Assembly: GCA_963746535.1 (NCBI GenBank)
Contig: CAVVBP010000007.1
Span: 752,319-816,318 of the forward strand
Direction of reading: 5' to 3'
DNA from: Vicinamibacterales bacterium
GTDB lineage: Bacteria; Acidobacteriota; Vicinamibacteria; Vicinamibacterales; JAMQPK01
Length of the DNA stretch: 64,000 bases
In this document: one piece after another, positions 8,651-55,559 of the stretch
How positions within the stretch are numbered: position 1 is the first letter of the stretch
How the letters are laid out: every line of letters begins with the position of its first letter
Notes under the pieces: model-generated
Database searches by the model: none
What the model was told of the DNA's origin: nothing
What the model saw: only the letters and a program-made list of their open reading frames with translations
Made by a program: the position numbers and the translations under genes

Positions 8651-8881
8651 GGTCACAGATCCTCTCGGTTTGCGAGCGGAGATTAGTCGAACCGATCGGG
8701 AAAAGGCAAACGAACATCGAGCGGCTGCGTGAGGCACTCATGCAACGTGCGAACAAAGCAAATGATGAACGAACGCGTTCTGAAGCTCAGCCTTCCAACG
8801 CTCTGCAAGTCATCGAGGCCCATGTGTCCTCGGTGACCGCGAATTGTTCGATGGGCGCAGACGGGCCGACGGCCCGACTCA

Positions 8882-9094
8882 TTACGCAAGCTTGCCTACC
8901 GCCGGGCCGGGATCGCGTCCCTCGTAATGGTCCGCATCATCCTCGACTTGCACGACGAGAGACACGCCATTCTTCGCCCTGCGCACCAGGAAGCTGTTAC
9001 GAATGTCATGGTTATCGAGGATGGCCTCCAATTGACGCAGGTTGCGGCGCGAAAGCCTCAGGTATACACGGTCCCCAATAATGGTCGCGAACAT
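8882..9094 (-). CDS. Small hypothetical protein (70 aa)
   Basis: ATG at 9094 (MFATIIGDRVYLRL...) preceded by GGGAGAAG. No family recognised. Confidence 0.4.
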   Translation of the reverse strand: MFATIIGDRVYLRLSRRNLRQLEAILDNHDIRNSFLVRRAKNGVSLVVQVEDDADHYEGRDPGPAVGKLA

Positions 9095-9279
9095 GTCTTC
9101 TTCTCCCACTTCTCCGCGCAACGCGCGCGATTAGACACAGGCAACTTCAGTTCCACTCGGGCTGCTCTGCGATCTGATTGATATTCAGGAGGTTGGGCGT
9201 CGTGGGCGCCGCGTCACTTTCGGTCGGCGTGACGAAATAGAGGCAGATGCCGAGGCGTGATCGCGAGCGCTTTCCCCGG

Positions 9280-10965
9280 TCACCTGTCTTCCGGGGGATG
9301 TTCGGAATACTTGATGTCCCGGAACAGGCTCACGCCCATGATGCACGCCGTCGCATAGCCGATCGCGCCGAACAGCGACACACCTCCGACGAGCGGCTCA
9401 GCATGCAGGCTCCAGAGGAGGGACGAGCCAAGAAGGAGCGACGATGTCAGCAGACCCAGGACCAAACGATTGACGACCGGGTCAAGACGTCGATGCTCCA
9501 GGTGCACGCTGAGGCTTCCCGCGCGCATGCTTGCCAGCATGTCGTTGAGGTCGCTCGGGACCGTGCGCAGCAGACGCTCCCATACGCGCGCGCCGCGCTG
9601 CACCTGGAGCCAGACCCGTTTGGGGGCCAACCTGCGCCTGGCCGCGTCTTCGGCATACGGTCGAATCAATTCGAACAGGCCGAACTGCGGATTGAGCTGC
9701 TTGGCGGTCCCTTCGAGCTCGCCGAGCATCCGCAGTAGCAGCATCACGCCGGGCGGCAGGAACAGGCGGTTCTCGTAAATGACGGCGGTCAGGCTCCTGA
9801 CCAGCGCGGCGACATCGACGCTGCCGATGCTCTGCCCCGCGTACTCGGTGACGAGCTCCGTGATGTCGGACTGCAGCCGTTTGCGCTCGGTCGTGGGCGG
9901 CGTTGTGCAGAGGTCCCACACCGCCTCGGTGACGGTTTGCGGATCGCGACGCACCGCTGCGAGGAGCAGGTCCTCGATGGCCTCGCGCAGATCGTCGTCC
10001 AGCCGTTGGACCATGCCGCAATCGAGCACTCCCACGACGCCATCGGGCAGGACCTTGAGGTTCCCGGGATGCGGATCCGCGTGGTAAAAGCCATCGCGGA
10101 AGATCATCTCCAGGTACATGTTCGCGCCGCGCCTGGCGAACTCGTCCATCTCAGGGTTCGGCCCCGGGACTAATTTGACCTGCGACACGAGCGCGCCCTC
10201 GAGTCGCTCCATGGTCAGGACGCGTCCTGAGCACAGCTCGGGATACGGGACCGGAAAATGGACGGTGTCGTCCGCGGCGAAGTTTTGACGGAACTGCTGG
10301 ATGTTGCGCAGCTCGCGCAGGAAATCGAGCTCGGCGCGCATCGTCTTCGTGAACTGATGGACGAGGGCGACCGGGTGGTACGGCTTCAGGTCGTCGACAT
10401 GGCGTTCGGCCAGTGCCGCAAGATCCGCGAGCATGCTCAGGTCGGCTTCGACCCGACCCTCGATGCCGTCTTTCTGAACCTTGACGACGACGTGCTCGCC
10501 GCTGTGCAGACGCGCGTGGTGCACCTGCGCGATGGAGGCTGATGCAAACGGCGTGGGATCGAACGAGGCGAACAGGGTCGCGGGCGGACTTCCGAGCTCC
10601 TTCTGAATCGTCGCCTCCGCCACGCCCGACGGATCGGGCGGCGTCTGGCTTTGCAGGTGCGTTAACTCGGCTGCCACATCTTGCCCGACCAGATCCGGCC
10701 GCGTGCTCAGCATCTGACCGAACTTGATGAACGTGGTGCCCAGTTCGCTCAGCGCCAGCCGGATGCGGACGGGCGTGCTGAGATCCACGATGTTCTGGCC
10801 TGCCGACCCGCGCAGCCACTGTTGCATGCGCTTCCCCGGCATCTTGCGAAGTTGATCGGCGAGGCCGTATCGAACTGCGACGCTGGCGATCTGCCGGAAC
10901 CGATGCGTGTTGCGCTGGCGTTGGCTGCGTCGTTCCAGACGTTCGCGCACGGAGGCGATGTTCAT
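9280..10965 (-). CDS. ABC1/UbiB-family atypical protein kinase with C-terminal TM helices
   Basis: FIKFGQMLSTRPDLVGQDVAAELTHLQSQTPP, SIAQVHHARL, HADPHPGNL and LDCGMV motifs are typical of ABC1/AarF/UbiB. Two hydrophobic C-terminal segments. The start could also be at 11058. Confidence 0.85.
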   Translation of the reverse strand: MNIASVRERLERRSQRQRNTHRFRQIASVAVRYGLADQLRKMPGKRMQQWLRGSAGQNIVDLSTPVRIRLALSELGTTFIKFGQMLSTRPDLVGQDVAAELTHLQSQTPPDPSGVAEATIQKELGSPPATLFASFDPTPFASASIAQVHHARLHSGEHVVVKVQKDGIEGRVEADLSMLADLAALAERHVDDLKPYHPVALVHQFTKTMRAELDFLRELRNIQQFRQNFAADDTVHFPVPYPELCSGRVLTMERLEGALVSQVKLVPGPNPEMDEFARRGANMYLEMIFRDGFYHADPHPGNLKVLPDGVVGVLDCGMVQRLDDDLREAIEDLLLAAVRRDPQTVTEAVWDLCTTPPTTERKRLQSDITELVTEYAGQSIGSVDVAALVRSLTAVIYENRLFLPPGVMLLLRMLGELEGTAKQLNPQFGLFELIRPYAEDAARRRLAPKRVWLQVQRGARVWERLLRTVPSDLNDMLASMRAGSLSVHLEHRRLDPVVNRLVLGLLTSSLLLGSSLLWSLHAEPLVGGVSLFGAIGYATACIMGVSLFRDIKYSEHPPEDR

Positions 10966-11117
10966 GACGGTCACCCTGATCCGCAAAGGGCGTTCCAATG
11001 GGTCTGCGTAGGCATCGGCCGATGAAGTGCTCAGGGTCGTGACGAAATCAAGGCACAAGACCTGTGGCCGTCAGCACGACCGAGGGCAGCGCCGTTGCAC
11101 TGCACGCGAACATCGCC

Positions 11118-11513
11118 ATGTCCCGCCTCTTGATTCTGGGCGCGACCGGGTCTCTCGGTCGCCACGTGCTGCGACAGGCGCTCGCCGCCGGCCACGCGGT
11201 CACAGTGTCCGTCCGGACGCCGTCCAAGCTGCCGCCCGAAGTCCGGGAACGAGTGTCCGTTCACAGCGGCGACCTCGGCGCCGTCGTGCCTCCCGATCTC
11301 GTCAGCGGCCAGGACGCCTTGATCAATGGCGCCGGCCACGTCGCCGACGGCGAAGCGTTCGTCGCCATGGTCGACACGCTTGTCACCTGGATCGTGCCGT
11401 ACGCAGATGCGGCTGCCCTGATGCTCGCAAACCTCGATCGTGGTGACGCCATGTCGCGCCATCGCGTCGGGCTGGCGCTGCCTGTGGGGATGCGCGGGCG
11501 GAAGCCGCGGTAG
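11118..11513 (+). CDS. NAD(P)-binding (NmrA/atypical SDR-like) protein, abnormally short; possibly internally deleted
   Basis: MSRLLILGATGSLGRHVLRQALAAGHAVTVSVR Rossmann GxxGxxG start. Only 131 aa, and the central part of the fold appears to be missing. Confidence 0.5.
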   Translation: MSRLLILGATGSLGRHVLRQALAAGHAVTVSVRTPSKLPPEVRERVSVHSGDLGAVVPPDLVSGQDALINGAGHVADGEAFVAMVDTLVTWIVPYADAAALMLANLDRGDAMSRHRVGLALPVGMRGRKPR

Positions 11514-11552
11514 GGCGTGGGTTCGGGATCTCCGCCGCACGAGGAAGAAGCG

Positions 11553-11600
11553 GGACGATCACCGCCTGCAGATCTGGCTCTTTCGAGTCGGTGATCGTCC
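11553..11600. terminator. 12-bp perfect inverted repeat between convergent genes (possible bidirectional terminator hairpin)
   Basis: GGACGATCACCG (11553-11564) and CGGTGATCGTCC (11589-11600) with a 24-nt loop. No U-tract. Confidence 0.3.
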
Positions 11601-11618
11601 AAACCAGTGGCGACAGAG

Positions 11619-11945
11619 TTACTTCTTTTCCGACGGTGTCGTGAACTTGCGCCTGAAGTCCTCGAGCGACGCCTGGAACGCCACGATCGCCGCATCGATG
11701 TCGACCTTGGCGCGTGCGACCTGCACGTCTCGCGTCGTCTTGAGGTCGACCACCATCCGTTCGATGTTTTGTCTGGCGGCCTTCAAGCCATTGATCGCGG
11801 AGATTTCTGCCTGTGCCCGCCTTGGCTTCGCACTCGCCTCGAGCTCGTCGATGCGGATGTTCGCCGCGTGAATCTGCGCGGCGATCTTGTCCTCGTAGGC
11901 TTGGAGTGTGGACGCGGTTCCGGGTTGTGTGTTTTGTGTCTCCAT
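11619..11945 (-). CDS. Small coiled-coil protein, unknown function
   Basis: ATG at 11945 after AGGAGAAGG. Heptad-like, charged helical sequence (IAAQIHAANIRIDELEASAK...). Confidence 0.55.
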   Translation of the reverse strand: METQNTQPGTASTLQAYEDKIAAQIHAANIRIDELEASAKPRRAQAEISAINGLKAARQNIERMVVDLKTTRDVQVARAKVDIDAAIVAFQASLEDFRRKFTTPSEKK

Positions 11946-12250
11946 TTTCCTTCTCCTCTTCACATCAGCGATACGCGCACGGTCAGCCCTGAAGTCGGGC
12001 CCCGCGGATGAAAGACCGCAAGTGTCGTTCCGCGGGACGCAGCTGAAGGAAACGATGTATCCCGTTCTCAGTCAAAATGTTACGGACTCATGGCGATGGG
12101 CGGGCCGGTGCGACCGTGACGAAATAAAGGCACGAGATCTCTCAGCGTCACGGGGAGTGGGGTCACGACCTGGGCGAACCTGCGGCGTGGGCCAATCGAG
12201 CCCGGCGCGAATGAAGTCTGGCGTTTGAGAATCCGGGAGAGCGACGCCCG

Positions 12251-14332
12251 TCAGCGGGTGCGGGCGTCGCGATTTGCGCCGGCCTGTGGCCTTGGTCGGA
12301 CGATGCCCAGCCGTCGCATCGTCGAGACAAGTGACGTGCGTTTGAGACCAAGGCGCGCGGCCGCGCCCTGGGTGCCGCCAATGACCCAGTCCGTCTGCTC
12401 GAGCGCGCGCAGGATGTGGTCGCGTTCGGCGTCCTCCAGCGTCACGGGCGAGGACGTGAGAGGCGAGGGCAACTCGAACTCCGAGCGGGGTACGGTCAGC
12501 ACCGTGCCCTGCGACAGGATGACCGCGCGCTCGATCACGTTCTGCAGCTCGCGGATGTTGCCGGGCCACGGCCAGCGGCACAGCATCTCCATGCTCTCGC
12601 GGGAGACCGACTCGATGGGCCGCCGTAGCCCCTTGGCGAACCGCTGCGCGAAGTAGCGGACGAGCAAAGGAATGTCCTCCCGGCGTTCCCGCAGCGGCGG
12701 AATGCGTATGGGAAACACGTTCAGGCGGTAGTACAGATCCGAGCGAAATTCCCGCTTCGCCACCATGTCTTCGAGATCGCGGTTAGTGGCGGCGATCAGC
12801 CGAAAGTCGACGCGAATGGTTCGCGTGCTTCCCAATCGCTCGATTTCACGCTGCTGAAGCGCGCGCAGCAGCTTCGACTGCAGTTCGAGTGGCACGTCGC
12901 CGATCTCGTCGAGGAACAACGTGCCCTGATGCGCCAGCTCGAAACGGCCGATTTTCTGCGCCAGTGCCCCGGTGAACGCTCCACGCTCGTGGCCAAACCA
13001 CTCGCTCTCGAGGAGCCCCGCGGGCGAGGTGGCGCAGTTCACCGTCACGAGCGACCGGCCTCGGCGCTCTCCGGCCGCGTGAATCGCCCGCGCGATGAGC
13101 TCCTTGCCGGTGCCGGTCTCGCCGAGCAGTAGGACGCTGGCATCGGTCGAGGCCACCGTGGCCACCTGGCTCAAGATGCGTTTCAGCGCCCGGCTTTCGC
13201 CGACGATCTCTCCGAAATGCTGGGCGCCTCGGATCTCCTCCTCCAGATAGATGTTCTCGCGCGCAAGGCGATCCCTCAGCGAAGCAATCTCGCCGAACGC
13301 GAGCGTATTCTCGAGCGCGAGAGCGATCTGCTCGGCGATCTGCGCGACCCAGCCCAACTCTTCGCTCGTGAATGGCGTCGGGGTCAGACGGCCGAGCGAG
13401 AGGATCCCGAGCACGCCATGCGGTGTCTTCAGCGGCGCGTTGCAGATGCGCTTCACACCCGACGCCTCGACGTGCGCCTTCAGCGCTTCCCACCCCTTCG
13501 GATCCGCACGTGTGACGTCCACGTCCACGGCGCGATCGAAGGGAGCGAGCCACGATGTGTATGGTTCGGTGTCGGGCCGGATGTGCGCCGCCAGGTCGTC
13601 GGGCCAGGCCAAAGCGTCCGGATCGATCACGAACGGTCCGATCCGGCGCTGTTCGTCGATGAGATACAGGTTCGTGTGATCGTGCAGGACGATCCGCCGG
13701 ACGTTCGGCACGATGGCCGCACGCAGCGCGGCGACGTCGCGCTGGGTGACGACCGCGTTGGTCATCTCGAGCAGCGTTCGCCAGTGATCGCGCTCGGCTT
13801 GCAGCTGGCGCTCACGCGCCACTGCCTCCTGCTGATGGCGTTCGTTGTCGATCGCCATGGCAACCAGCGCGCCAATGTGCCGCAGGAAACTGGTGTCGCA
13901 CTGACAGTACGTCCCTTCGCGCGATGACGCGAACGCGATCAGCCCCACCGGGCCCAGCGCGGTTGCGAGCGGCAGCAGACAGGCCGACTGCTGGCCGAAC
14001 CCGCGCAACGCGGCGATGACATCCGCGTATTCGCCTGGCTCGTCAAGGCGGTCGAAGACCATCGCCGGGGAACCCGTTGCGGCGAGGGCAGCCAGGCGCG
14101 CTTCATCGAGCGGCGCAACGGCCATCGACTGAACCTGCGCCGCCGCCGACGCACCGTCAGGCCCTCCAACGCGGACGGATTTCAGCTGTGCGGTTCTCCA
14201 TTCGTGATGCGGAACGACCACGCCAAGCACGTCGAAGTTGGCGACCGTTTGAAGAGAGGCGGCCAGCGGCGGCAGGAAGTCGTCAAGGTGAGTGTTACGA
14301 CCGATCAGGTCGATCACACGTGTGAGAGGCAT
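12251..14332 (-). CDS. Sigma54-dependent transcriptional activator (bEBP): GAF sensory domains, AAA+ domain and C-terminal HTH; FhlA-like architecture
   Basis: Walker A GETGTGKE, the sigma54-contact loop ERGAFTGA, FLDEIGD and RVDFRLIAATNRDL. Also a C-terminal Fis-type HTH (GAAARLGLKRTSLVSTMRRLGI) and about 370 N-terminal residues with GAF-like sequence. Confidence 0.9.
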   Translation of the reverse strand: MPLTRVIDLIGRNTHLDDFLPPLAASLQTVANFDVLGVVVPHHEWRTAQLKSVRVGGPDGASAAAQVQSMAVAPLDEARLAALAATGSPAMVFDRLDEPGEYADVIAALRGFGQQSACLLPLATALGPVGLIAFASSREGTYCQCDTSFLRHIGALVAMAIDNERHQQEAVARERQLQAERDHWRTLLEMTNAVVTQRDVAALRAAIVPNVRRIVLHDHTNLYLIDEQRRIGPFVIDPDALAWPDDLAAHIRPDTEPYTSWLAPFDRAVDVDVTRADPKGWEALKAHVEASGVKRICNAPLKTPHGVLGILSLGRLTPTPFTSEELGWVAQIAEQIALALENTLAFGEIASLRDRLARENIYLEEEIRGAQHFGEIVGESRALKRILSQVATVASTDASVLLLGETGTGKELIARAIHAAGERRGRSLVTVNCATSPAGLLESEWFGHERGAFTGALAQKIGRFELAHQGTLFLDEIGDVPLELQSKLLRALQQREIERLGSTRTIRVDFRLIAATNRDLEDMVAKREFRSDLYYRLNVFPIRIPPLRERREDIPLLVRYFAQRFAKGLRRPIESVSRESMEMLCRWPWPGNIRELQNVIERAVILSQGTVLTVPRSEFELPSPLTSSPVTLEDAERDHILRALEQTDWVIGGTQGAAARLGLKRTSLVSTMRRLGIVRPRPQAGANRDARTR

Positions 14333-14704
14333 GACATAAACCTCAGAACCAACCGCTCGACCGCCGCGAGTACCAGTCGGAGTTTGTGTCTGGTCCGCAT
14401 CATATCCTCTAACGCCCGGCGGCCACGACGCGAAGTATTCCCCACCGCGAGCGCGCCGGCGATGTGACAGTCGCGCCCAGGTCGCGTGACGTACCGGAAA
14501 CTTCTGACTTCATTTCGCCACCGCCGCCCCGCGCGGCAACGCCGACGGCTGGCGTCAACCTCCTGATGGACAAGCAGATACCACTACGGTCCGGCATTCG
14601 CGGGCGAGGTATCGATCTTGCCGCCAAGGTCACTGGAAGGACGCGAGCACGAGGACGCGCCGCAGTTCGCAGCGGAAGTCTTCGTCTGTGGCGAGGGCGC
14701 ATCA

Positions 14705-15004
14705 ATGTTACGGGTGATTACCGAGAGGCAGGGAGACCGCTACAGGCTCGAGCTCCATGGGGCACTCGGCGGCGAATGGGTGGCGGTGCTCGAACAACAC
14801 TGGCGCTCCATCATGGACGACCTGCCGTCCGCGAAGGTGACGCTCGTGCTGTCGAACGTCGACTTCATCGATCGCGACGGTGAACAGTTGCTCGAGCGAA
14901 TGCTTGACGACGACGTCGAGTTCGTCGTGGCCGGGTGCATGAATCGATATGTCATCGACAGCTTGAAGCCGGGTCTGCGCGCGGCCGAAGGAGGACAGCG
15001 ATGA
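14705..15004 (+). CDS. STAS-domain (anti-sigma-factor-antagonist-like) protein
   Basis: MLRVITERQGDRYRLELHGALGGEWVAVLEQHW...VTLVLSNVDFIDRDGEQLLERM follows the SpoIIAA/STAS pattern. Transcribed divergently from the bEBP. Confidence 0.55.
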   Translation: MLRVITERQGDRYRLELHGALGGEWVAVLEQHWRSIMDDLPSAKVTLVLSNVDFIDRDGEQLLERMLDDDVEFVVAGCMNRYVIDSLKPGLRAAEGGQR

Positions 15005-15291
15005 GATGTCCGGCGACAGTCAGAGACGCCCGCGAGGCTCGTGCCTTGATTTCGTCAGCGGGCTACGGCGTCGCGGCCGCGACTCACCGCGCAAGCCTGC
15101 GAACGATAACGGGATCGAGGGTCTCCGTCCAGTTGGCTCATTGGAACGAGGCTTGCCCTGTTGATGACAACGCTCGATGTGATGCTACGGCGGCACGGTG
15201 CTGCACACGACGTTGAGCAAGGAGCAGCAGGCGAAGGTCGAAGCAACGCTGCAAGGCCGGTAACACAACACACCAGGAAAGGAAGGCGCTT

Positions 15292-23696: not shown

Positions 23697-24515
23697 TTAC
23701 GGTGTCAGGCCGAAGGCCTGCTGAAGTTTACCGAGCGAGGTCTGCACGGCTTGCCAATTCGTCATGGCCGGCATCGGGTGCGCGTCGACGAATGTCTGGA
23801 GCTTGGCCACCTGTTCAACAACCTGCCGCATTTCACCGGTCGCCGGCTTGCCGTCGCTCGTACGGGATTTCACCGCATCGGCCTGCTTGATGAGCATCTC
23901 GACGTCCTTCTTGGCCGTGTCCTTCTCGGGTTTCAGCAGGGTCTTGTCTTTGTCGAGGTCGTTCTTGAAGCGGTTCGCGGCATCGGCGATCGTTGAAGCG
24001 ACGCTCGCGGTCTCCTTATCGTTCATCCGACGGACCGCGGCGCCATCCGGAAGGGGAAACGTGGTGCCGTACGCGTCCGCCAGTTGCTTGAGATTCGTCG
24101 TCAGCCGATCCCATTCGCTGCGGCCCTTCATGTCGCTCGGCGAGCCCTTCATGAACGTGTCGATCGCCGTGGACTGTTTGAGAACGGTGACGACCTCGGC
24201 GCTGGCGGAGTAGTCCGCGGTGAATCGATCCTTGAGCTTCTTGGTGCTGTCCTGATAGTCCTGGAGAGCGCCGGAGACCTTTATCTCCCCGTTCGCTCCT
24301 TGCACCGTCGATCCCTTGAAGTCGCCGTCGAGGTTGCCTTCGAACTTGTCACGTCCCTCATCGACCTGGTCGATCAGCATCTTGACGTCCTTGTCAGAGA
24401 GGCGTTCAGGTCGCTCCTGGGCGAGCGCCGGAAGGGTCCACAGGGACAGGGTGGTCACGAGGAGAATGGTCCGGGCGCGCGCGGCGATGATGCGTGGGCT
24501 GCGAGTGGATTTCAT
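23697..24515 (-). CDS. Secreted helical protein with an internal two-fold repeat, unknown function
   Basis: Signal peptide ...LSLWTLPALAQ. Repeated segments DKDVKMLIDQVDEGRDKF / KKDVEMLIKQADAVKSRT and VVTVLKQSTAIDTFMKG / VVEQVAKLQTFVDA. Confidence 0.7.
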   Translation of the reverse strand: MKSTRSPRIIAARARTILLVTTLSLWTLPALAQERPERLSDKDVKMLIDQVDEGRDKFEGNLDGDFKGSTVQGANGEIKVSGALQDYQDSTKKLKDRFTADYSASAEVVTVLKQSTAIDTFMKGSPSDMKGRSEWDRLTTNLKQLADAYGTTFPLPDGAAVRRMNDKETASVASTIADAANRFKNDLDKDKTLLKPEKDTAKKDVEMLIKQADAVKSRTSDGKPATGEMRQVVEQVAKLQTFVDAHPMPAMTNWQAVQTSLGKLQQAFGLTP

Positions 24516-24623
24516 GGTTGTTCCTTGTCTTATCGAGTGATGGATCTGACCTAATCCCTCAGGCTAGCAGCGTCCCCGCACGTCGACTGTGTCGAATTGA
24601 ACAGGTGAGGATCACACGTTCAC

Positions 24624-25379
24624 TCAATGCCGCGCTACAGGCACAGGAGACCACGGTGAACGAGTGTGTCCGGACACCGGCGGTTCCTCGACTGGGGCCT
24701 TGAACGCCGCCCTGTATGCGACGCCCGCGACTGCGGCGCCGATCACCGGCGCAAGCCAGAACAACCAGAGCTGCTGGAGAGCCCAGCCTCCGACGAACAC
24801 CGCTGTGGCAGTGCTGCGCGCCGGATTGACCGAGGTGTTCGTCACCGGGATGCTGATCAGATGGATCAGCGTGAGGGCGAGGCCGATGGCGAGACCAGCG
24901 AATCCTGCAGGGGCACGTGTGTGAGTGGTGCCGAGAATGACCAGCAGGAACATGAACGTCATCACGACTTCGCACACAAGCCCCGCCGCCAGCGAATACT
25001 CACCCGGGGAGTGCGCGCCGTAGCCGTTCGAGGCAAACCCGCCGGCGAGGCTGAAATCGGCGCGCCCGCTCGCGATGAGAAAGAGCACGAGTGCGCCGGC
25101 GATGCCACCGAGGACTTGCGCCCCGGCGTACGGCAACAGCAGGCCGGCGGGGAAGCGGCCTCCTGCCCACAGGCCGACGGAGACAGCGGGGTTGAAGTGA
25201 CCGCCCGAGATCGGGCCGAAAGCGTACGCCCCGGTGAGCACCGTGAGACCGAACGCCAGTGAGACCCCGAGGAATCCGATCCCGACCTCTGGAAAGGCGG
25301 CCGCGAGGACCGCGCTGCCGCAACCGCCGAGCACGAGCCAGAACGTGCCGATAAACTCCGCAGAAAGCTTAGAGAACAT
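24624..25379 (-). CDS. aqpZ: Aquaporin Z
   Basis: ATG 25379 after [42 protein letters not shown] and NPARSTA NPA boxes. About 20 extra C-terminal residues. Confidence 0.9.
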
Positions 25380-25442
25380 GGCGCACTCCTTTGGTGACCC
25401 TGCGACGATCGTCACGAAGGTATCGTCCGGCGACGCGGAACG

Positions 25443-25459
25443 AAGCATCTTCCGTACCG
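25443..25459 (-). promoter_or_regulatory. Candidate sigma54 (-24/-12) promoter of aqpZ
   Basis: The minus strand reads CGGTACGGAAGATGCTT: GG-N10-GC spacing, with GGTACG/TGC against the consensus TGGCACG-N4-TTGC. Lies about 66 nt upstream of the ATG and forms part of the repeated module. Confidence 0.5.
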
Positions 25460-25548
25460 GGACGGGGCGAGGATCGTCGTCAATTCGAGGAGGTATGACG
25501 CAGGCGCGCGGGATCCCGCGATCCAAGCCGCGTTATATCGTGTGTGTC
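25443..25548 (-). repeat. Copy A of a 106-nt regulatory module (promoter block plus distal site)
   Basis: Gap-free alignment with 29462-29567: 37/40 identical, then 8/11, then 37 nt unrelated, then 16/18 (CGTTATATCGTGTGTGTC at 25531-25548). Confidence 0.8.
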
Positions 25549-25633
25549 GTGATGTTCTCCAGACCGGGCTCCAGCGTTGACTACATCAGAGCGGATGGCT
25601 GAGGCCACCGCATAGTGAAGTCAAGGAGGACAC

Positions 25634-26020
25634 ATGTCTGCTCGAAAGGTCATTCACACGTTGTTTGGCGTGGCGCTCATCGGCGTGCTGGCAACCTCGT
25701 CGATCGGCGCAATGCCGGAGGCGGGGAAAATGACGTACTTCACGTTCAGCAAAGCCGTGCAGCTCCCCGGCGTCGCACTGCCAGCCGGCACCTATATCTT
25801 CGAGATCATCAACCCCGACACGAGCGCGAACGTCGTTCGCGTGGCCAGTCGCGATCGCTCGAAGGTCTATCTGACGCAAATCACCCATCGGGTTGAACGC
25901 CCGCGGTCGCGTGATATGGAGCCGCGGATCGTGCTCGGCGAGGCTCCGGCTGGCCAGCCGCCCCCGGTGGCGTCGTGGTTTCCCCATGGCGAGACGATCG
26001 GCCGCGCGTTCATCTACTAA
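25634..26020 (+). CDS. Small secreted protein, unknown function
   Basis: RBS AAGGAGGA. Signal peptide IHTLFGVALIGVLATSSIGA. Confidence 0.65.
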   Translation: MSARKVIHTLFGVALIGVLATSSIGAMPEAGKMTYFTFSKAVQLPGVALPAGTYIFEIINPDTSANVVRVASRDRSKVYLTQITHRVERPRSRDMEPRIVLGEAPAGQPPPVASWFPHGETIGRAFIY

Positions 26021-26109
26021 TCTCGACGAGTCAGCGCTCGCCATGCCGGGACGCATATGGTTGCCCGGTATGGCGGGCTCGCCCGCAACCAACACAACTC
26101 GGCGTGACG

Positions 26110-26643
26110 TCAACGCGAACAGTGATTCTCTGCCCGGCGATAAATCCTGTGGCAGCCGCTGCACGAGTCGGCCAGCTGTCCGTTCGCCTCGCTGATTTGC
26201 TCCTGGCTGCGCGCACGTGCCGCCGCGGCCGTCGCGCGGGCCGATACGCGCATCGCCTCCACCGCCGCTTTCCACTGTGATTCGTCGACCGGGACCGGCC
26301 TGCCGTTCGCACAGGCACGGCCGCGGAGGTTCAGCAGGTCCGCTGACTCCAGCAGTGCAAGGCTGCTGTTCTCGACCGCCTGCCACCCGCCGTAGAGACC
26401 CGAGAGCGGGTTGGTCGATGTCGACGGCTTGATATCGCGGGGAACAGCGGCGGGATCGTCACTCTCAGTGGCGAAGATCACGTTGGCGTTCGGGAACAGG
26501 ATCGCCTGCATCAACTGCTGAGCCGTCGAGGCGGGGCGGGGCGCCGGGGTCTGCGCCTGCGTTTCCACACGCGCCATGATGCCGGCCACGATCGCAACCG
26601 CAACGAGCAGGCAGCATCGCTTCACGGCTGCGCTTCGCGGCAT
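26110..26643 (-). CDS. Cytochrome c' (class II c-type cytochrome) with signal peptide
   Basis: Single CxxCH (CSGCHRIY) close to the C-terminus of a helical protein of about 150 aa, as in class II cytochromes. The start overlaps the upstream gene by 22 nt. Confidence 0.7.
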   Translation of the reverse strand: MPRSAAVKRCCLLVAVAIVAGIMARVETQAQTPAPRPASTAQQLMQAILFPNANVIFATESDDPAAVPRDIKPSTSTNPLSGLYGGWQAVENSSLALLESADLLNLRGRACANGRPVPVDESQWKAAVEAMRVSARATAAAARARSQEQISEANGQLADSCSGCHRIYRRAENHCSR

Positions 26644-27383
26644 TTTCCGCCCGGGCAGCGATTGTTCTCCTCGCACACGTACTCAAGCAGGCCGAGCTTG
26701 TCCCAATCGGGACGCAGCGTCAGCTCGAAGTCCTGCGAGAACGGGCGTTCGAAGATCTTCGAATCGTCAATCGTGATGCGGTACCGCAGCTTGTCGCCGG
26801 CACGCTGCAATCGCTCGGTCGTCTTGAGCGCGTCGGTGTGCCACCGGCTCCTGGTCGGATCGGTGTAGTGGTAGTCGTCGAGGATCCACGGCTTGAAGTT
26901 GACCGTCTCGATGACGAGCGCGTCGCCGTCCCACCGGCCCACTGAGTCGCCGTAGTAGGTCGGCTCGATGTCCTCCCGGTGCGGGCGCCCATCCGTCGGG
27001 ATAATCCGCGCGGCGCGCTGGAGCTCCGGGATGATCACGATGTAGTTCTGGTTCTGCACGATCTGGATCGGCAGGATGTAGAGCATGCCCGACGGGAAGC
27101 CCGACGGCAGGCAGGCGGCGCGCGGCTCGTCGAGACGAACATCGCCCGTGCGCATGTGGTACAGCAGGCTCTCGGCGCCGGGTTTCACCGGCGCCATCTT
27201 GTCGGCGTTGAAGATCAGGTTGCCGCGCGGCCCGGTCGCGTTGACCGTGGCCGGCGGTGTGTAGATGCCAGAGAAGTCAGGTTTGCCGTTTGCGGTGCGC
27301 GGAATGTCCTGCGCCCGGCTGGAATGGCCGGCGAGGAACACCAGCGCCGTCACAAGTGCCGAAGCGATGAATCGGCGGCTCAT
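26622..27383 (-). CDS. Secreted protein of unknown function (operon gene 5)
   Basis: Signal peptide ALVTALVFLAGHSSRAQ. ATGA overlap with the upstream gene stop at 27380-27383. Confidence 0.75.
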   Translation of the reverse strand: MSRRFIASALVTALVFLAGHSSRAQDIPRTANGKPDFSGIYTPPATVNATGPRGNLIFNADKMAPVKPGAESLLYHMRTGDVRLDEPRAACLPSGFPSGMLYILPIQIVQNQNYIVIIPELQRAARIIPTDGRPHREDIEPTYYGDSVGRWDGDALVIETVNFKPWILDDYHYTDPTRSRWHTDALKTTERLQRAGDKLRYRITIDDSKIFERPFSQDFELTLRPDWDKLGLLEYVCEENNRCPGGKCREAQP

Positions 27384-27775
27384 TTCCCACCCTCCGTTGG
27401 CGTCAGCACATTCGTGCCGTCGGCGAACGTGATGCGCCGGGCTGAAGCGTTGTTGGAACCATCACGGGCACGCACGCCTTCGACGTTGATCACCGAGCCG
27501 AGTTTGAGCGCCGTCTTGGTCACCCCGCGGCGCATCAGCGCTCCAGGGGGCGCCGTGGAAAAGCCCCAGGTCGTCAGCTTCCCGTCCTGTTCCTTCACCT
27601 CGACATAGAACCAGACATGCGGGTTCTGCCATTCGACCTTCGTCAGCATGCCGCTGACCTTGACCGGCTTGGTCGTGTCGTACTCGGCGGCTTCCGCATG
27701 GTGTGCGCGCAGCAGTGGGCCCGAGAGAAAGAGACCCAGGCCAATCACGAGCAAGAGCAGTCTGTGGCGTGGCAT
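27380..27775 (-). CDS. DUF6152-like periplasmic protein; predicted mature N-terminus His-His
   Basis: MPRHRLLLLVIGLGLFLSGPLLRA/HHAEAAEYD...VKVSGMLTKVEWQNPHVWFYV matches the remembered DUF6152 pattern (AHHSF..FD...V.L.G.V..F.W.NPH). A TTG at 27799 is an alternative start. Confidence 0.7.
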   Translation of the reverse strand: MPRHRLLLLVIGLGLFLSGPLLRAHHAEAAEYDTTKPVKVSGMLTKVEWQNPHVWFYVEVKEQDGKLTTWGFSTAPPGALMRRGVTKTALKLGSVINVEGVRARDGSNNASARRITFADGTNVLTPTEGGK

Positions 27776-27826
27776 GCAGTGCCTCAAAAGACGTTTCAAA
27801 GACTGTAAGAGAAGGGTTTCGGTTCG

Positions 27827-28324
27827 TCAACGTATCTCGGCAAAAAACGGCAGCATGCGGCCGAAGTAGAGCACGGCGAACCAGGCGACGAGCGAGACCC
27901 CGCCTACGACCTTGAAGGTCAGCGGCGTATCCTCGCCGGCCCCAATCGCCAGGACGCGGGCCCCCTGCGTGGTCTCGAAGAACATGGCGTTGAGACCCGC
28001 CACCAGCAGGAAGGCGACCTTTCCCCACCAGGCCCAGCTCACAACGTACTGGGAGGGCAGGGCCAGGAAGAACAGAATCCCGGTCGTCAGATTGAGACCG
28101 AAGCCGCACAGGGCCAGCGGCATGAACTGCCGCGCGACGGTCAACGGCACCCGCTTCATCAAACCGAGCAGGCGCAGGTCGAAGAATCCTGTCGCGCCGA
28201 TCAGCAGCGCCAGGCCGATGAAGTGCAACGTTTCGGAGAGCGGCCAGAGCCACGGCGCCTGCGACTGCAGAAACAGCGAGACCGACGTGTTCTGCAGGTC
28301 GCGTGCGAATGCTTCAACCGGCAT
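27827..28324 (-). CDS. Integral membrane protein (about 4 TM), paralogue of the next gene upstream
   Basis: Hydrophobic segments with TLHFIGLALLIGATGFFDLRLLG. Similar layout to the 28332-28802 product (TILVLHTAGFALVVGSALVVNARLLG). Confidence 0.7.
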   Translation of the reverse strand: MPVEAFARDLQNTSVSLFLQSQAPWLWPLSETLHFIGLALLIGATGFFDLRLLGLMKRVPLTVARQFMPLALCGFGLNLTTGILFFLALPSQYVVSWAWWGKVAFLLVAGLNAMFFETTQGARVLAIGAGEDTPLTFKVVGGVSLVAWFAVLYFGRMLPFFAEIR

Positions 28325-28331
28325 CGTCGCG

Positions 28332-28802
28332 CTACTTGATATAGGCCATCAGCCGGCCGGCGACGATGGCGCCGGTCCAGGTCACGAGTGACACCACGGC
28401 GAGCACGCGGCCGCGTGCCGGCACCACGCTCTGCTCGCCGGCGCCCTTGACCATCCGCACGATCGGCACAGTAACGCCCAGCGCCATGGCGATCAGCGAC
28501 AACTTGATCCAGAAGATCGCTTGAAACGCCTTCACCGTTGCCGCGATAGCGAACAGGATGAACCCGCTGATGGCATTGACCGTGAATCCCGCCCACATGA
28601 TTGGGAACAGCGGTCCAAATGCGGACAGCGGCGCGAGACGGCCCAGCCCCAGCAACCGCGCGTTCACGACCAGGGCTGAACCGACGACGAGCGCGAAGCC
28701 GGCGGTGTGCAGGACGAGAATGGTGGGGTATCCCCAGATCGACCCCGATTCCGCGATCGTCACGAAGATGGGAAGATGCTGCAGCCACTCGAGAAATGCC
28801 AC
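28332..28802 (-). CDS. Integral membrane protein (about 4 TM), paralogue of 27827-28324
   Basis: GTG start. 7-nt gap to the downstream paralogue. Motifs shared with it. Confidence 0.7.
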   Translation of the reverse strand: MAFLEWLQHLPIFVTIAESGSIWGYPTILVLHTAGFALVVGSALVVNARLLGLGRLAPLSAFGPLFPIMWAGFTVNAISGFILFAIAATVKAFQAIFWIKLSLIAMALGVTVPIVRMVKGAGEQSVVPARGRVLAVVSLVTWTGAIVAGRLMAYIK

Positions 28803-28839
28803 AGCCGCCGATGCTACCCTAACTTTCCTTCATCGCCTC

Positions 28840-29409
28840 CTATTTGGGAGCTTTGCCCTCGATAACAGTCTTGGTCGAGATGACGGTCCGGGGCTCTTCG
28901 ATGACTTTTTCTCCTGAGACCTTCATGCCCTTCTTCAGATCGGTGACGGCGGCCGGCTTGCCTTCCACAACGAACCGGAACGTCGGAGGAACGACGTACT
29001 CCCGGTTCTCGCCGCTTGGGAGCGTGAGAATCACGTAGTTGCCCGACGTGTACCACACGGTGCCGTTGGTGACGGTCGTCGTCCGCACCACGATCGGCTG
29101 CGTCGTCGTAATCGCGGTCGCCCTCAGAACCGTTCCCGGCCGGAGGTCGCTGATGAGTCTGGCTTGACCATCGATGATGAACTGCCGTCCGGGTGGGATG
29201 TCGAAGTAGCGGTACTGGCCGCTCGGTTGCAATTTGACCAGGAGCCAGTTGCCCTCAGTCAGCACCACTTCTCCAGTGATCTGCTCCTGGGTCACCTTGG
29301 CGTTGCCCGCAGCCTCTGTGACCTTGCTTGTCGTGGTCTGCGCTCGAAGCCCCACAGCCGAGGCCAGCAACACCGCCACGCCCGTGATAATGAGATGCCG
29401 TTTCGTCAT
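28840..29409 (-). CDS. Secreted Thr/Val-rich beta-type protein (operon gene 1)
   Basis: ATG 29409 after AGGAGAAGG. Signal peptide HLIITGVAVLLASAVGLRAQ. Alternating beta-strand-like sequence. Confidence 0.7.
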   Translation of the reverse strand: MTKRHLIITGVAVLLASAVGLRAQTTTSKVTEAAGNAKVTQEQITGEVVLTEGNWLLVKLQPSGQYRYFDIPPGRQFIIDGQARLISDLRPGTVLRATAITTTQPIVVRTTTVTNGTVWYTSGNYVILTLPSGENREYVVPPTFRFVVEGKPAAVTDLKKGMKVSGEKVIEEPRTVISTKTVIEGKAPK

Positions 29410-29461
29410 CTTTCCTTCTCCTTTTGGTACGTGCTCGTACCGCCGTGACAGTCCCGAAATG

Positions 29462-29567
29462 GAGCATCTTCCGTGCCGGGAAGGGGCGAGGATCGTCGTC
29501 ATTTCTGGGAGGACCTGCCGCAGCGCACGGAGTACTACGATAGAAACCACGATATATCGTGCGTGTC
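29462..29567 (-). repeat. Copy B of the 106-nt regulatory module; contains the perfect palindrome CACGATATATCGTG (29548-29561)
   Basis: See copy A. The palindrome centre lies about 85 nt upstream of the -24 element, a typical enhancer distance for bEBP sites. Confidence 0.8.
29463..29479 (-). promoter_or_regulatory. Candidate sigma54 (-24/-12) promoter of the six-gene operon
   Basis: The minus strand reads CCGGCACGGAAGATGCT: GGCACG-N4-(A)TGC(T) with exact GG-N10-GC spacing. Lies about 55 nt upstream of ATG 29409. Confidence 0.6.
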
Positions 29568-29594
29568 TCGCCCTTGGCGGTTCGTTGACTGACG

Positions 29595-32510
29595 CTAATC
29601 CACCGCTCGATATGCCACGAGCCGCCACTCGGAGCTCACCCGCCGCCAGACGAACACGATCGTCCCGCCCGGCCGTCCTTCATGAACGACCTGCAGCAGG
29701 GCGCCGTAGTACGTGCCGTACTCCGGCGTCGTCGACGCCACGAACGTCTTCGGCGGCGTCGTTCCACACTCGTACAGTGCGCCTAGCTCCGTGGGAGCCT
29801 CGACGATCGTGAAGTCCCGATCGAACGCGTGCTTCACGACGCGCACCGCGGACGACCAGGGCACGACGGGATTCATCGCCTGGGTCAGGCTGGTTGGCCG
29901 TCCCCACTGGTTCGCGGTCTGTTCCAACAGCTTCACGCTCGCGTGCCGTAGACGTTCCGGCGACGTCTTCGGATTCATGTCGAGCGAGTCGGCGACGCAC
30001 GGCAGAACATCCGGTGCGAGGAACGCCGCGGCTTCCTGGTAGTTGCGCCGGATCAGCCAGTCCGCCAGGAACTCCTGCACGGCGTCGGCGATCTCCGGAA
30101 CCGACTCTGTGGCCCGGTTGGGTGGCACGGTGGTCGGCGGCCGTGTCGGCGCACCACCAAAGGCACCGTCCTCACCCCGCTCGCCGAACCTGACGGCGCC
30201 GAACGTTTCCGACCACCAGTTGGCGAAGCCGTTCCACCGCCGCGTGTGGCGTTGCGCGTTGTCGCCGGCCCGGACGTCCGAGTTCGAGGACGTGAGATGC
30301 CCGTTGAACAACGATTGCGGCGCCTTGCTCGCGCGATAGTCGACGTCGATGTCGGCGCCGAGCCCATCTTCAGCCACGGAGAACTGGACGCTCGGGACGC
30401 CCGCGCCAAGACGGAATGAGTGCGGGTAGCCGGCATGGTACGCCGTGTTCTCCTGACTCAGGACGAACTCGCGCGATTGCTCCAGAACGTCGCGCGCGTT
30501 CGGCCGCAGGGTCACGTAGACGCGGAACTGCTGATCGCCGCTCCGGCCGGCCTGCTCGCCGGCAATGCGATTGAGACCGGCCACGAGGTCGATCGCCCGT
30601 CCGAGTGGTTGTCCGCGATCGTCGGTCAACACCGAGTGGAGGAGCGCGTGCGTGATCGCATCGAACGTCGTCTGTTCGGAAGGGCTGAGCGCCCGGAAGC
30701 GTTCATCGGGCGTGAGGTTCTCGCCGAGCCTGGTGTTCATCGCGCGAGCGTAGGTGTCGAAGATCCGCTGCCGCTCGGGTTCGAGCTCGACGTACCGGTT
30801 CCTGACCGGTCGTACGACGACGCGCGGATCGACCAGCGAACGGCCGGGCCACTCGCGATCGATGCCGACAACGCGGAGGCCAGCGGTCTCCCGGCGCAGA
30901 TACACGCTCACGGCCATGCCCGGAGGTGCGCCGTCCGCCGTGATGCGCGCCAGGACGTAGCTGCCGGCGGGAGCGTTGACGGCCGCGGCGGGTATCGGCT
31001 GGCCCTGATCGGTCGATCCCAGCACCGCCGCTGGTTTCGCCGTTCTGTTGTCGTAGGTCAGCCAGTCCACGCGGTAGCGGCGTGCCTCCGTGTACTGGTG
31101 TTGCAGCGCGAGATCGACAAACGTCAGCTCCGCACCGCGGACGGCGATGTCGTCGATTGGAAGCACCGTCGCGAAGTACGCGCGTCCGATGCGATTGCGC
31201 CGATCGATCAGGCAGTCCGCGATCCAGCGTTCGGCGTTCGGGTCGGCATACTGCGCGACCTGCACGATGGCGCGGATGTCCTCGTCTGTGAATGCGCCCA
31301 CCTGCCGGGCCGCCCAGAAATCGTCGTCTGGCAGCCGGTTGGCGAACGGGGCCACATCGTAGACGGGAGCCCACTTGTCCGGCTCGAACGTTTTCGAATC
31401 GAAGGCGCCGACCGCCGGAAGATTCGGATATGTGGCACGCATCCAGGCCGGCGTGTACAAGCCGAGTCCGGAGACATTACGGAGCGACGCCTCCGCTCCG
31501 TAAATCGGATCCCGGCCTTCCCATACGCCTTTCGGGCCGTTGATGCCGCTACCCAGCGTGGCCATGAAATCCAGGAGGTAGTGACGGATATGCGGAGCCT
31601 GTCCCTGCGGCTGGACCACGACGTCGAACGTGTGGAGCGCGTCCATGCGCGCGTGGTTCAGCCAGGCCGAGAAGACCCGTAAACCGCGCAGGTCGCGCCG
31701 GTGCTCGTGCGGCACGATGTCGTTCGGGTCGTCGCTTCGCGTTCCGAACAGCTGATACGGACCGACCAGCGATACGCCGTCCGTGGGCACTCTCAGGGCA
31801 ATAGCACGGTATTGGCCGTCGCGCCGGCGCTCGACCGTGGCCAGCAGACGGTCGATGTGTTCGGGGCGGAGCGGGCGGACGCCGGCGTTGGAGGTCACCG
31901 CCGTGGCGTTCGTCTCGACGACGAGGCGATCGCGCAAGAACAGCGTCAAGTAGGTTTCGGGAACGTAGTAGCCGAGCGCGTGAAAGAAGCGCGAGGAGAT
32001 CATCGCGGCGCCGGTCGCCAGCTCGGACGACCCGCGCGGATCGAAGTTCAGAAAGTAGACCCGGCTGTTCTCGTCGCGAAACACGATCGTCGGCCGCAGC
32101 CCCGTGTTCTTCACCACGAGGACGTGCCACGGGCCCGTCGTCGATGGCGGCTGGTCGTCTCCGCTGCCGCGGCGCAACTCCTCCAGGCTCATGCGGGTGC
32201 GCCCGTGACGGTTCACGTACCACGGGCCGTCGAGCACCTCGCCCAGCGTGTTGACGCCCTGCGCCCCGATGACGCGCGTGCCAGGATGTCGTTCACCCGG
32301 ACGGCCGAACGTTGCCGACACCGCCTCGAGAAGCACGCTCAGATTGCGCGGACCCGGATCGGGCGCGGGCAGTGGCGCCGGTTCGCCGAGCAACGGATCG
32401 TCGGGATAGAACTTCTGCGCGGCCGCCGGTCGCGGCCCGATACCCGTCGCTACGGCGAGAAGCGCCAGCACGAGCGTGAGGTGGTAAGCCGGCAGTCGGC
32501 GGGGCGTCAC
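29595..32510 (-). CDS. Large (971 aa) secreted protein of unknown function
   Basis: The probable GTG start at 32510 shares a G with the TAG of the upstream Omp85 gene (TAGTG). Signal peptide LPAYHLTLVLALLAVATGIGPRPAAAQ. No family recognised by eye. Confidence 0.75.
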   Translation of the reverse strand: MTPRRLPAYHLTLVLALLAVATGIGPRPAAAQKFYPDDPLLGEPAPLPAPDPGPRNLSVLLEAVSATFGRPGERHPGTRVIGAQGVNTLGEVLDGPWYVNRHGRTRMSLEELRRGSGDDQPPSTTGPWHVLVVKNTGLRPTIVFRDENSRVYFLNFDPRGSSELATGAAMISSRFFHALGYYVPETYLTLFLRDRLVVETNATAVTSNAGVRPLRPEHIDRLLATVERRRDGQYRAIALRVPTDGVSLVGPYQLFGTRSDDPNDIVPHEHRRDLRGLRVFSAWLNHARMDALHTFDVVVQPQGQAPHIRHYLLDFMATLGSGINGPKGVWEGRDPIYGAEASLRNVSGLGLYTPAWMRATYPNLPAVGAFDSKTFEPDKWAPVYDVAPFANRLPDDDFWAARQVGAFTDEDIRAIVQVAQYADPNAERWIADCLIDRRNRIGRAYFATVLPIDDIAVRGAELTFVDLALQHQYTEARRYRVDWLTYDNRTAKPAAVLGSTDQGQPIPAAAVNAPAGSYVLARITADGAPPGMAVSVYLRRETAGLRVVGIDREWPGRSLVDPRVVVRPVRNRYVELEPERQRIFDTYARAMNTRLGENLTPDERFRALSPSEQTTFDAITHALLHSVLTDDRGQPLGRAIDLVAGLNRIAGEQAGRSGDQQFRVYVTLRPNARDVLEQSREFVLSQENTAYHAGYPHSFRLGAGVPSVQFSVAEDGLGADIDVDYRASKAPQSLFNGHLTSSNSDVRAGDNAQRHTRRWNGFANWWSETFGAVRFGERGEDGAFGGAPTRPPTTVPPNRATESVPEIADAVQEFLADWLIRRNYQEAAAFLAPDVLPCVADSLDMNPKTSPERLRHASVKLLEQTANQWGRPTSLTQAMNPVVPWSSAVRVVKHAFDRDFTIVEAPTELGALYECGTTPPKTFVASTTPEYGTYYGALLQVVHEGRPGGTIVFVWRRVSSEWRLVAYRAVD

Positions 32511-55386: not shown

Positions 55387-55559
55387 CTACGAACAACGAC
55401 ATCGCCGTTCTTGGCACCGGATGCACCATGAACGGTTCGTTTTTCAGGAACGGGAGCGCAACGCGCGTGCCAACGCGATTCTTCGTGTTTTAGGCGGAAA
55501 GTACCTGAAATCGATCTGATCAACGGCGGGGGCCGAGAGATAATCCGCAGGCGGCACGA

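Follow-up and report, generated by a model that had tools for sequence, protein, structure and literature searches.

We analysed a 64,000-nucleotide (nt) stretch of DNA, hereafter the window, from a Vicinamibacterales bacterium of lineage JAMQPK01 (assembly GCA_963746535.1, contig CAVVBP010000007.1, positions 752,319-816,318 of the forward strand). Two minus-strand genes in the window, aqpZ (24624..25379) and a gene for a secreted protein, here termed gene 1 (28840..29409), are each preceded by a copy of the same 106-nt non-coding module. Copy A (25443..25548, minus strand) lies upstream of aqpZ and copy B (29462..29567, minus strand) upstream of gene 1; both contain a putative enhancer site, a spacer, a conserved block, and a -24/-12 promoter-like element. 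aqpZ encodes a 251-amino-acid (aa) aquaporin Z (NCBIfam NF003838 aquaporin Z equivalog, 380 bits; Pfam MIP). Gene 1 encodes a 189-aa protein with two tandem small beta-barrel repeats and has 431 homologues. The AlphaFold2 (AF2) model of gene 1 was all-beta (predicted local distance difference test [pLDDT] 81), with weak OB/TOBE/EF-P-like fold matches only. An attempt to derive its function from structure was unsuccessful; the PDB matches were generic small beta-barrels with template modelling (TM) scores ≤0.23.

Read on the minus strand, copies A and B aligned without gaps at 79/106 positions (segments of 16/18, 18/37, 8/11, and 37/40), exactly the alignment described in the original prediction. 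Ungapped local alignment of the two intergenic regions reached a best score of 55, whereas 300 dinucleotide shuffles gave 9.3 ± 1.4 (maximum 15), and the A/B pair was the top direct repeat in the whole window. In the flanking 40 nt, identity was at background level on both sides (30% upstream and 27% downstream). Similarity ended at the -12 element on one side and at the putative enhancer site on the other; the start codons were located 53-64 nt beyond the end of conservation, and the leaders in between were unrelated. Both copies were also found in L014, a metagenome-assembled genome (MAG) of Vicinamibacterales that is collinear with window positions 24278-32254 at 94.5% identity. The L014 orthologue of copy A was identical at 101/106 positions. 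The 37-nt spacer had been described as unrelated between the copies; however, it was 49% identical, or ~62% when a 1-nt indel was allowed, and the spacer of copy B in L014 matched copy A over CCGTGCGCCTGCGTCAT. The two spacers are therefore homologous but diverged, and the duplication covered the entire module. Divergence within the module was uneven: the distal palindrome, the 19-nt block, and the -24/-12 element were conserved at 93-100%, and the spacer at 49-62%. This is the pattern expected of bound sites parted by a linker.

The promoter-proximal end of each module carries a GG-N10-GC element, CGGTACGGAAGATGCT in copy A (25444..25459, minus strand) and CGGCACGGAAGATGCT in copy B (29463..29478, minus strand). 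Their shared form is CGG(C/T)ACG-GAAG-ATGCT, i.e., GGCACG or GGTACG followed by TGCT. Compared with the sigma-54 consensus TGGCACG-N4-TTGCW, copy B agreed at 10/12 positions (C for T at the first position and A for T at -15) and copy A at 9/12. In a weighted -24/-12 scan with a maximum of 20.5, copy B scored 17.5 and copy A scored 16.0. Upstream of these elements is the invariant block TGACGACGATCCTCGCCCC (25464..25482 in copy A and 29483..29501 in copy B, minus strand), identical in the two copies and containing the near-palindrome CGACGATCCTCG. This 19-mer had two exact occurrences in the window, with 0.07 expected; copy B of L014 had one change (C to T). Farther upstream is a candidate upstream activating sequence (UAS), CACGATATA(T/A)CG(T/C)G in both copies, 83-84 nt from the promoter element. 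In copy B it is the perfect palindrome CACGATATATCGTG (29548..29561, minus strand; 20.5 bits, 83-84 nt upstream of the 16-mer promoter element), and in copy A the imperfect palindrome CACGATATAACGCG (25529..25542, minus strand; 15.7 bits, 84 nt upstream). The matrix used for these scores was built from 12 sites, including that of copy A. Both copies have the dyad CACG-N6-CGTG 84 nt upstream, as is characteristic of an enhancer-type UAS. The GG-N10-GC spacing, the perfect palindrome of copy B, and the end of similarity at -12 were all confirmed on recheck.

From this architecture we propose, with a probability of about 80%, that both 106-nt modules constitute complete control regions, dependent on sigma-54 (RpoN) and equipped with an enhancer, and that aqpZ and gene 1 belong to one regulon. 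RNA polymerase containing sigma-54 would bind CGG(C/T)ACG-N4-ATGCT as a closed complex. An AAA+ enhancer-binding activator, as a dimer or oligomer, would bind the inverted repeat CACGATATA(T/A)CG(T/C)G ~84 nt upstream, loop to the polymerase, and open the promoter through ATP hydrolysis. Transcription is predicted to start near 25433 for aqpZ and near 29452 for gene 1. With nearly identical DNA in front of them, the two genes would read the same activator.

Two copies by themselves are weak evidence for this proposal; the decisive evidence came from relatives, where the architecture recurs in promoters of different sequence. Our survey of gene 1 promoters comprised 47 non-redundant upstream regions, 80 metagenome loci being included. 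Gene 1 orthologues with 74-90% aa identity (L041, L043, L044, L046, L047, L051, and L132) are stand-alone genes in unrelated neighbourhoods, and their promoter-proximal sequence is unrelated to the window module. Each of them keeps CCACG(G/A)(T/C)ATTTCG 85-100 nt upstream of TGGCGGGCnnTTTGCA. At the position of the copy B UAS, the orthologous promoters read CCACGATATTTCGC or CCACGGTATTTCGTG, and both the UAS and the spacer of copy B are orthologous to theirs. A forward-strand sigma-54-like site was present in 22 of the 47 regions, compared with 7 on the reverse strand and a mean of 3.4 (maximum 8) in shuffled sequences. The GG-N10-GC spacing was identical in 19 distinct related promoters.

Relatives of aqpZ were found at seven loci (85-91% identity) with three types of promoter, and all seven had a -24/-12 element. 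They keep ACGGTATT.C.GA 118-123 nt upstream of CGG(C/T)AC(A/G)CGG(T/C)CTGCA. In L126, GCCACGGTATTTCGG is followed after 119 nt by CGGTACGCGGTCTGCA, with aqpZ directly after. In L125 and L127, CCTACGGTATTACGG is followed after 118-119 nt by CGGCACACGG(T/C)CTGCA, then by a gene for a 183-aa secreted protein, and then by aqpZ; L128-L131 show the same arrangement of the 183-aa gene and aqpZ, with a leader of ~300 nt. The layout shared by the gene 1 and aqpZ promoters of relatives is thus a CCACGGTATTTCG-type site, 85-123 nt, and (T/C)GGCAC-N5-TGC(A/T).

Matrices were made from the gene 1 and aqpZ promoter instances, and 586 kb was scanned for promoters preceded at 60-150 nt by a UAS. The scan yielded 31 UAS-promoter pairs, with spacings of 84-123 nt, compared with 0-1 in shuffled sequences, and 31/31 faced the start of a downstream gene; the original prediction had anticipated such further matches in 5′ regions. 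Pairs outside the training set were found at L117 1770, L126 8900, L125 2866, and L127 2634. Within the window, only the two modules scored with both matrices. The putative target genes were also linked to one another: the order in L117 is gene 1, UAS and promoter, 183-aa gene, aqpZ; aqpZ directly precedes gene 1 in L097; and the 183-aa gene directly precedes gene 1 in L055 and L095. Neither BLASTP nor hhalign (probability 1%) detected homology of the gene 1 product to the 183-aa secreted protein. The recurrence of one architecture in otherwise unrelated promoter sequence supports the sigma-54 and enhancer reading put forward in the original prediction, and suggests a regulon conserved across Vicinamibacterales that would comprise aqpZ, the two-beta-barrel family of gene 1, the secreted protein of 183 aa, and probably a small number of other envelope proteins, with an upstream site of approximate consensus C(C/T)ACGGTATT(T/A)CG. 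Relatives share the predicted sigma-54 control of aqpZ, and the peculiarity of the window's lineage lies in having two promoters that are copies of each other.

These findings also bear on a neutral origin of the repeat, i.e., a recent segmental duplication or gene-conversion tract in which the sigma-54 likeness is fortuitous and no function is shared. Such an event would explain why the two copies occur in the lineage of the window and L014 only, why L132 (gene 1 90% identical) has a different proximal promoter, and why the bare -24/-12 pattern taken alone is not significant. However, it would not leave the UAS, the 19-mer, and the -24/-12 element at 93-100% while the spacer fell to 49-62%, and it does not account for the strongly enriched architecture shared by independent promoters of both gene families. 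We regard a neutral duplication as very unlikely.

The sequence around the conserved block could also be read as a promoter of the sigma-70 family or of an extracytoplasmic function (ECF) sigma factor, with TTGACG as -35, CGACGATCCTCG as a repressor site, and the distal palindrome as a second operator. The copy A block does begin with TTGACG, and palindromes resembling GACGATCGTC are enriched window-wide (19 vs. 7.7 expected), occur in both blocks, and include a perfect one in the aqpZ leader. However, no acceptable -10 was found 16-18 nt past TTGACG (the sequence there is CCGGTA or CCGGCA), copy B has ATGACG instead, a sigma-70 scan was empty at both modules, and orthologous promoters that lack the block retain GG-N10-GC. 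This reading is quite unlikely, and a repressor acting at the block could be compatible with sigma-54 control. The perfect GACGATCGTC palindrome is located at 25404-25413 in the 5′ leader of aqpZ, and copies with one mismatch are located at 25469-25478 and 29488-29497, inside the two 19-mer blocks, and at 29655-29664, upstream of module B. A second regulator may act at these sites or at the 19-mer block.

Both copies lie upstream of start codons in sense orientation, as would a transcribed cis-regulatory RNA (leader or riboswitch) common to the two mRNAs. Against this, there was no Rfam match at the gathering threshold or at E≤1, and folding z-scores relative to shuffled sequences were -0.15 to +0.81 for both strands of both copies. 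Conservation lies upstream of the predicted transcription start and ends 53-64 nt before the start codons, where the leaders are unrelated. Copy A moreover sits in a divergent intergenic region shared by aqpZ and a plus-strand gene for a 128-aa secreted protein (25634..26020), which is outside the module; the 85 nt between copy A and this gene leave little room for an upstream promoter. A shared RNA element is exceedingly unlikely.

The original prediction had also named a dispersed repeat, found mostly outside 5′ regions, as a contrary outcome. A short, repeated, palindrome-bearing non-coding sequence does resemble a repetitive extragenic palindromic (REP) or miniature inverted-repeat transposable element (MITE)-like repeat. 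However, the 64-kb window held just two copies, each located in a 5′ region and oriented alike, and neither terminal inverted repeats nor target duplications were seen. A scan of a species-representative collection of 185,579 species genomes with the 19-mer returned 40 matches, of which one was genuine (the orthologous locus L014) and 39 shared the 19-mer alone. The scan was for exact matches, so that diverged copies escape it and one-mismatch copies such as copy B of L014 are invisible to it. Judged from the window and this collection, the probability of a dispersed repeat is close to negligible.

Several observations weigh against sigma-54 control of the modules. Neither copy is a perfect consensus: at -12 both have ATGCT where the consensus has TTGCA, and copy A reads GGTACG. 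The bare pattern GGYACGN5TGCW occurs twice in the window with 0.89 expected, which is not significant by itself, and the weighted consensus scoring and the position matrices were both of our own making. The enhancer of copy A may be weaker than that of copy B; its palindrome is imperfect and has drifted further in L014 (13.6 bits vs. 15.7 bits). The standard sigma-54 model assigns no role to the GC-rich 19-nt block that adjoins -24 on its upstream side. In relatives, 25 of the 47 gene 1 upstream regions had no strong site within 280 nt. A perfect-consensus UAS, GGGCCACGGTATTTCGTGATCGG, was found ~100 nt upstream of a gene for a DUF481 outer-membrane protein at five loci (L108 3139, L113 4342, L114 2544, L115 6312, and L119 4407), and at none of these five was a recognisable -24/-12 element present between the UAS and the gene; the UAS motif may also act at promoters that do not use sigma-54, or the DUF481 promoter may be atypical. 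Finally, a search of the 64-kb window for an RpoN box was negative, and the presence of rpoN is deduced from genes for bacterial enhancer-binding proteins (bEBPs).

The original prediction placed aqpZ and a six-gene operon under shared control. The link between aqpZ and gene 1 was supported by the relatives; its extension to genes 2-6 was not. Genes 2-6 (26110..28802, minus strand) are tightly packed and, according to Pfam, encode two DUF6644-like membrane proteins, a DUF6152 protein, a 253-aa protein, and a cytochrome c′-like protein. A 37-nt gap (28803-28839) separates gene 1 from gene 2, and a terminator scan showed no terminator-like hairpin in it. Gene 1 stands alone in L041-L044 and L132. 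In L133-L137, the orthologues of genes 2-6 make up a separate cluster of five that lacks gene 1 and has just 80-120 nt upstream, and neither a UAS nor a sigma-54 promoter was found in that upstream sequence. Because the cluster of the relatives is independent and lacks a sigma-54 promoter, the conserved target of the predicted promoter is gene 1, not genes 2-6. Co-transcription of genes 2-6 by read-through from gene 1 is possible in the window and would reflect a lineage-specific juxtaposition. The last ~15 nt before gene 2 (GTTAGGGTAGCATCG) are conserved with the stand-alone cluster of relatives (GTTAAGGTAGCATCGTG; L133 4960-5000), where TAAGGT is located 6 nt before the GTG start. This suggests that the cluster of genes 2-6 has its own promoter, possibly producing a leaderless mRNA.

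A bEBP gene with the domain order GAF-GAF-AAA+-HTH_8 is located at 12251..14332 (minus strand). Its product has a Walker A motif (GETGTGK) and an intact GAFTGA motif (Pfam Sigma54_activat, 233 bits), which indicates that the organism uses sigma-54. This protein had been proposed as the activator of the modules. However, TGCCTYKATTTCGTCA has four exact matches around its gene, with 0.08 expected (9230-9245, 11040-11055, and 12117-12132 on the minus strand, and 15042-15057 on the plus strand), each followed after 43-85 nt by a GG-N10-GC element of the GGAAC type that itself precedes a gene start (window 9155-15160). The four -24/-12 elements are TGGAACTGAAGTTGCC (9155), TGGAACGCCCTTTGCG (10997), CGGAACGACACTTGCG (12032), and TGGAACGAGGCTTGCC (15142), and the genes after them encode a small open reading frame product, an ABC1 kinase-like protein, a 108-aa coiled-coil protein, and a DUF1269/apolipoprotein-like protein. 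Since these four flanking promoters carry a different upstream site, the bEBP is probably dedicated to them and is not the activator of the modules. It is predicted to bind TGCCTTGATTTCGTCA, and another protein, which may be the orthologue of an NtrC-type regulator encoded in L126, is predicted to bind CACGATATATCGTG. This putative second regulon is of the same organism and promoter class as the modules, with a conserved site upstream of GG-N10-GC, and differs from them in having TGCCTYKATTTCGTCA rather than CACG-N6-CGTG, GGAAC rather than GGCAC or GGTAC at -24, and promoters clustered around the activator gene. Its site shares an ATTTCGT core with the aqpZ and gene 1 sites of relatives, but not with the module sites of the window.

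Among all loci fetched, a bEBP gene near the regulon genes was found in L126 only, where it encodes an NtrC-type response regulator. In that locus, aqpZ and the 183-aa gene are 3 kb apart, and their modules (5750-5885 and 8780-8915) each have their own upstream site and CGGTAC(G/A)CGGTCTGCA at a spacing of 118-119 nt. The NtrC-type bEBP and a HAMP sensor kinase are encoded directly beside these modules (9770-12608, minus strand), and form a candidate cognate two-component system. As the targets are an aquaporin and secreted proteins, the signal would most plausibly be osmotic, desiccation, or envelope stress.

The spacing of 84 nt in the window modules and their spacer sequence GCAG..CC..CC..AAT fit gene 1 promoters rather than aqpZ promoters (118-123 nt). 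It is therefore probable that a gene 1 cassette was copied to the position before aqpZ. In the lineage of the window and L014, either the control region of gene 1 would have been copied before aqpZ, or both regions would have been homogenised by gene conversion. L132, whose gene 1 orthologue is 90% identical, keeps an older and different proximal promoter, which suggests a recent origin, within the lineage of the window and L014, for the proximal half of copy B. Two motifs upstream of copy A, GCGGTGGCC and CGGTCTGGA, looked like possible remains of the ancestral aqpZ promoter and were rejected; local alignment scores to the aqpZ promoters of relatives were within the range of shuffled sequences. 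The distant relative L108 has its own pair of duplicated promoter modules of ~130 nt (1733-1866 and 2666-2800), one upstream of a gene 1 homologue with CGGCACCCATCGTGCC and the other downstream of the gene with a degenerate -12. Module duplication appears to recur in the regulon. We lean slightly towards a broader interpretation, in which a previously undescribed, order-wide sigma-54 regulon ties the expression of AqpZ to that of small secreted beta-barrel proteins by way of a novel enhancer motif (approximately CCACGGTATTTCGTG) read by a bEBP, and in which cassettes have repeatedly been copied between members (A and B in the window, the two modules of L126, and the two of L108), amounting to concerted evolution of cis-regulatory modules.

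The proposed regulon is previously undescribed, but judged by its layout it would work like textbook promoters controlled by sigma-54 and a bEBP. Classical examples from E. coli and Salmonella (glnAp2 with NtrC, pspA with PspF, hyc/hyp/fdhF with FhlA, and zraP with ZraR) likewise have GG-N10-GC with flanks close to TGGCACG-N4-TTGCW, an inverted-repeat site ~80-120 nt upstream, and an AAA+ activator with GAFTGA. The zraP and psp systems resemble the present one in having small periplasmic or envelope proteins as targets; these targets and the bEBP sites compared here were taken from a table of Salmonella regulons (PMC4987338). Neither the module site CACGATATATCGTG nor the CCACGGTATTTCGTG of relatives matched any bEBP site listed there. 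The FhlA site CATTTCGTACGAAATG has only the heptamer ATTTCGT in common with the upstream sites of relatives (PMC4987338); this is a weak lead at most, and the sites of the window itself read ATATCGT and ATAACG. The GC-rich 19-mer sits where sites for integration host factor (IHF) often lie in classical sigma-54 promoters, and inspection by eye revealed no match to the IHF site WATCAANNNNTTR, whether in the module of the window or in the conserved A/T-rich blocks that relatives have. A large comparative study of sigma-54 regulons treats sigma-54 as the controller of the bacterial exterior, a theme that fits the regulon proposed here, and contains no mention of an aquaporin (PMC3162934).

The targets in the present case, aqpZ and the secreted beta-barrel proteins, are not known sigma-54 targets, and our full-text searches found no literature linking aqpZ or aquaporin Z to sigma54 or RpoN. 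Expression of aqpZ is associated with stationary phase in E. coli, and a Brucella aquaporin is induced by hyperosmotic conditions; the gene product is the same, and its control is stress-linked rather than housekeeping, as it would be here. A statement in PMC3141248, citing Soupene et al. 2002, reports that aqpZ of E. coli is sigma-S dependent, consistent with the RpoS control stated in the original prediction, whereas the gene has a sigma-54-type promoter with an enhancer in the window and at the seven related loci. The understanding of how sigma-54 itself works is unchanged by this finding. A sigma-54 promoter gives no transcription until it is activated by an ATPase that senses a signal. 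Placed under such a promoter, an aquaporin would be a water channel available on demand, as opposed to the growth-phase function reported for E. coli. For soil bacteria exposed to drying and rewetting, the modules would provide a concrete wiring diagram of one enhancer motif, a few envelope proteins, and aqpZ. The lineage concerned, Vicinamibacterales, comprises abundant but rarely cultured and poorly studied soil Acidobacteriota. The putative regulon would also give a first functional context to two uncharacterised families of secreted proteins, and the modules would illustrate cleanly, in a natural setting, how a promoter cassette moves from one member of a regulon to another.

Some further features were observed at these loci. 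The UAS and sigma-54 pairs at L125 2866 and L127 2634, with TGGCAC(A/T)CGACATGCC, are located directly upstream of the unit formed by the 183-aa gene and aqpZ. The cluster that each pair heads includes a protein with a weak, sub-threshold match to the LPXTG anchor (E=0.006) and a Ysc84-like protein, together with a sortase in L127 only and a DUF502 protein in L125; the genes of this cluster are possible further members of the regulon. Between the 183-aa gene and aqpZ there is a conserved GC-rich stem-loop, CCGGGGCG followed after ~12 nt by CGCCCCGG, without a U-tract (about 5885-5915 in L125, and at the equivalent place in L127-L131 and L097), which could be an intercistronic processing or attenuation element. 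In the window, further strong sigma-54-like sites were found in intergenic regions, a short distance upstream of gene starts, at 55472 (minus strand), 58373 (plus strand), and 34015 (plus strand) (TGGCACGCGCGTTGCG, TGGCACCGTCGTTGCT, and TGGCCAAGACCTTGCT, respectively), and the window thus appears to be rich in sigma-54 promoters.

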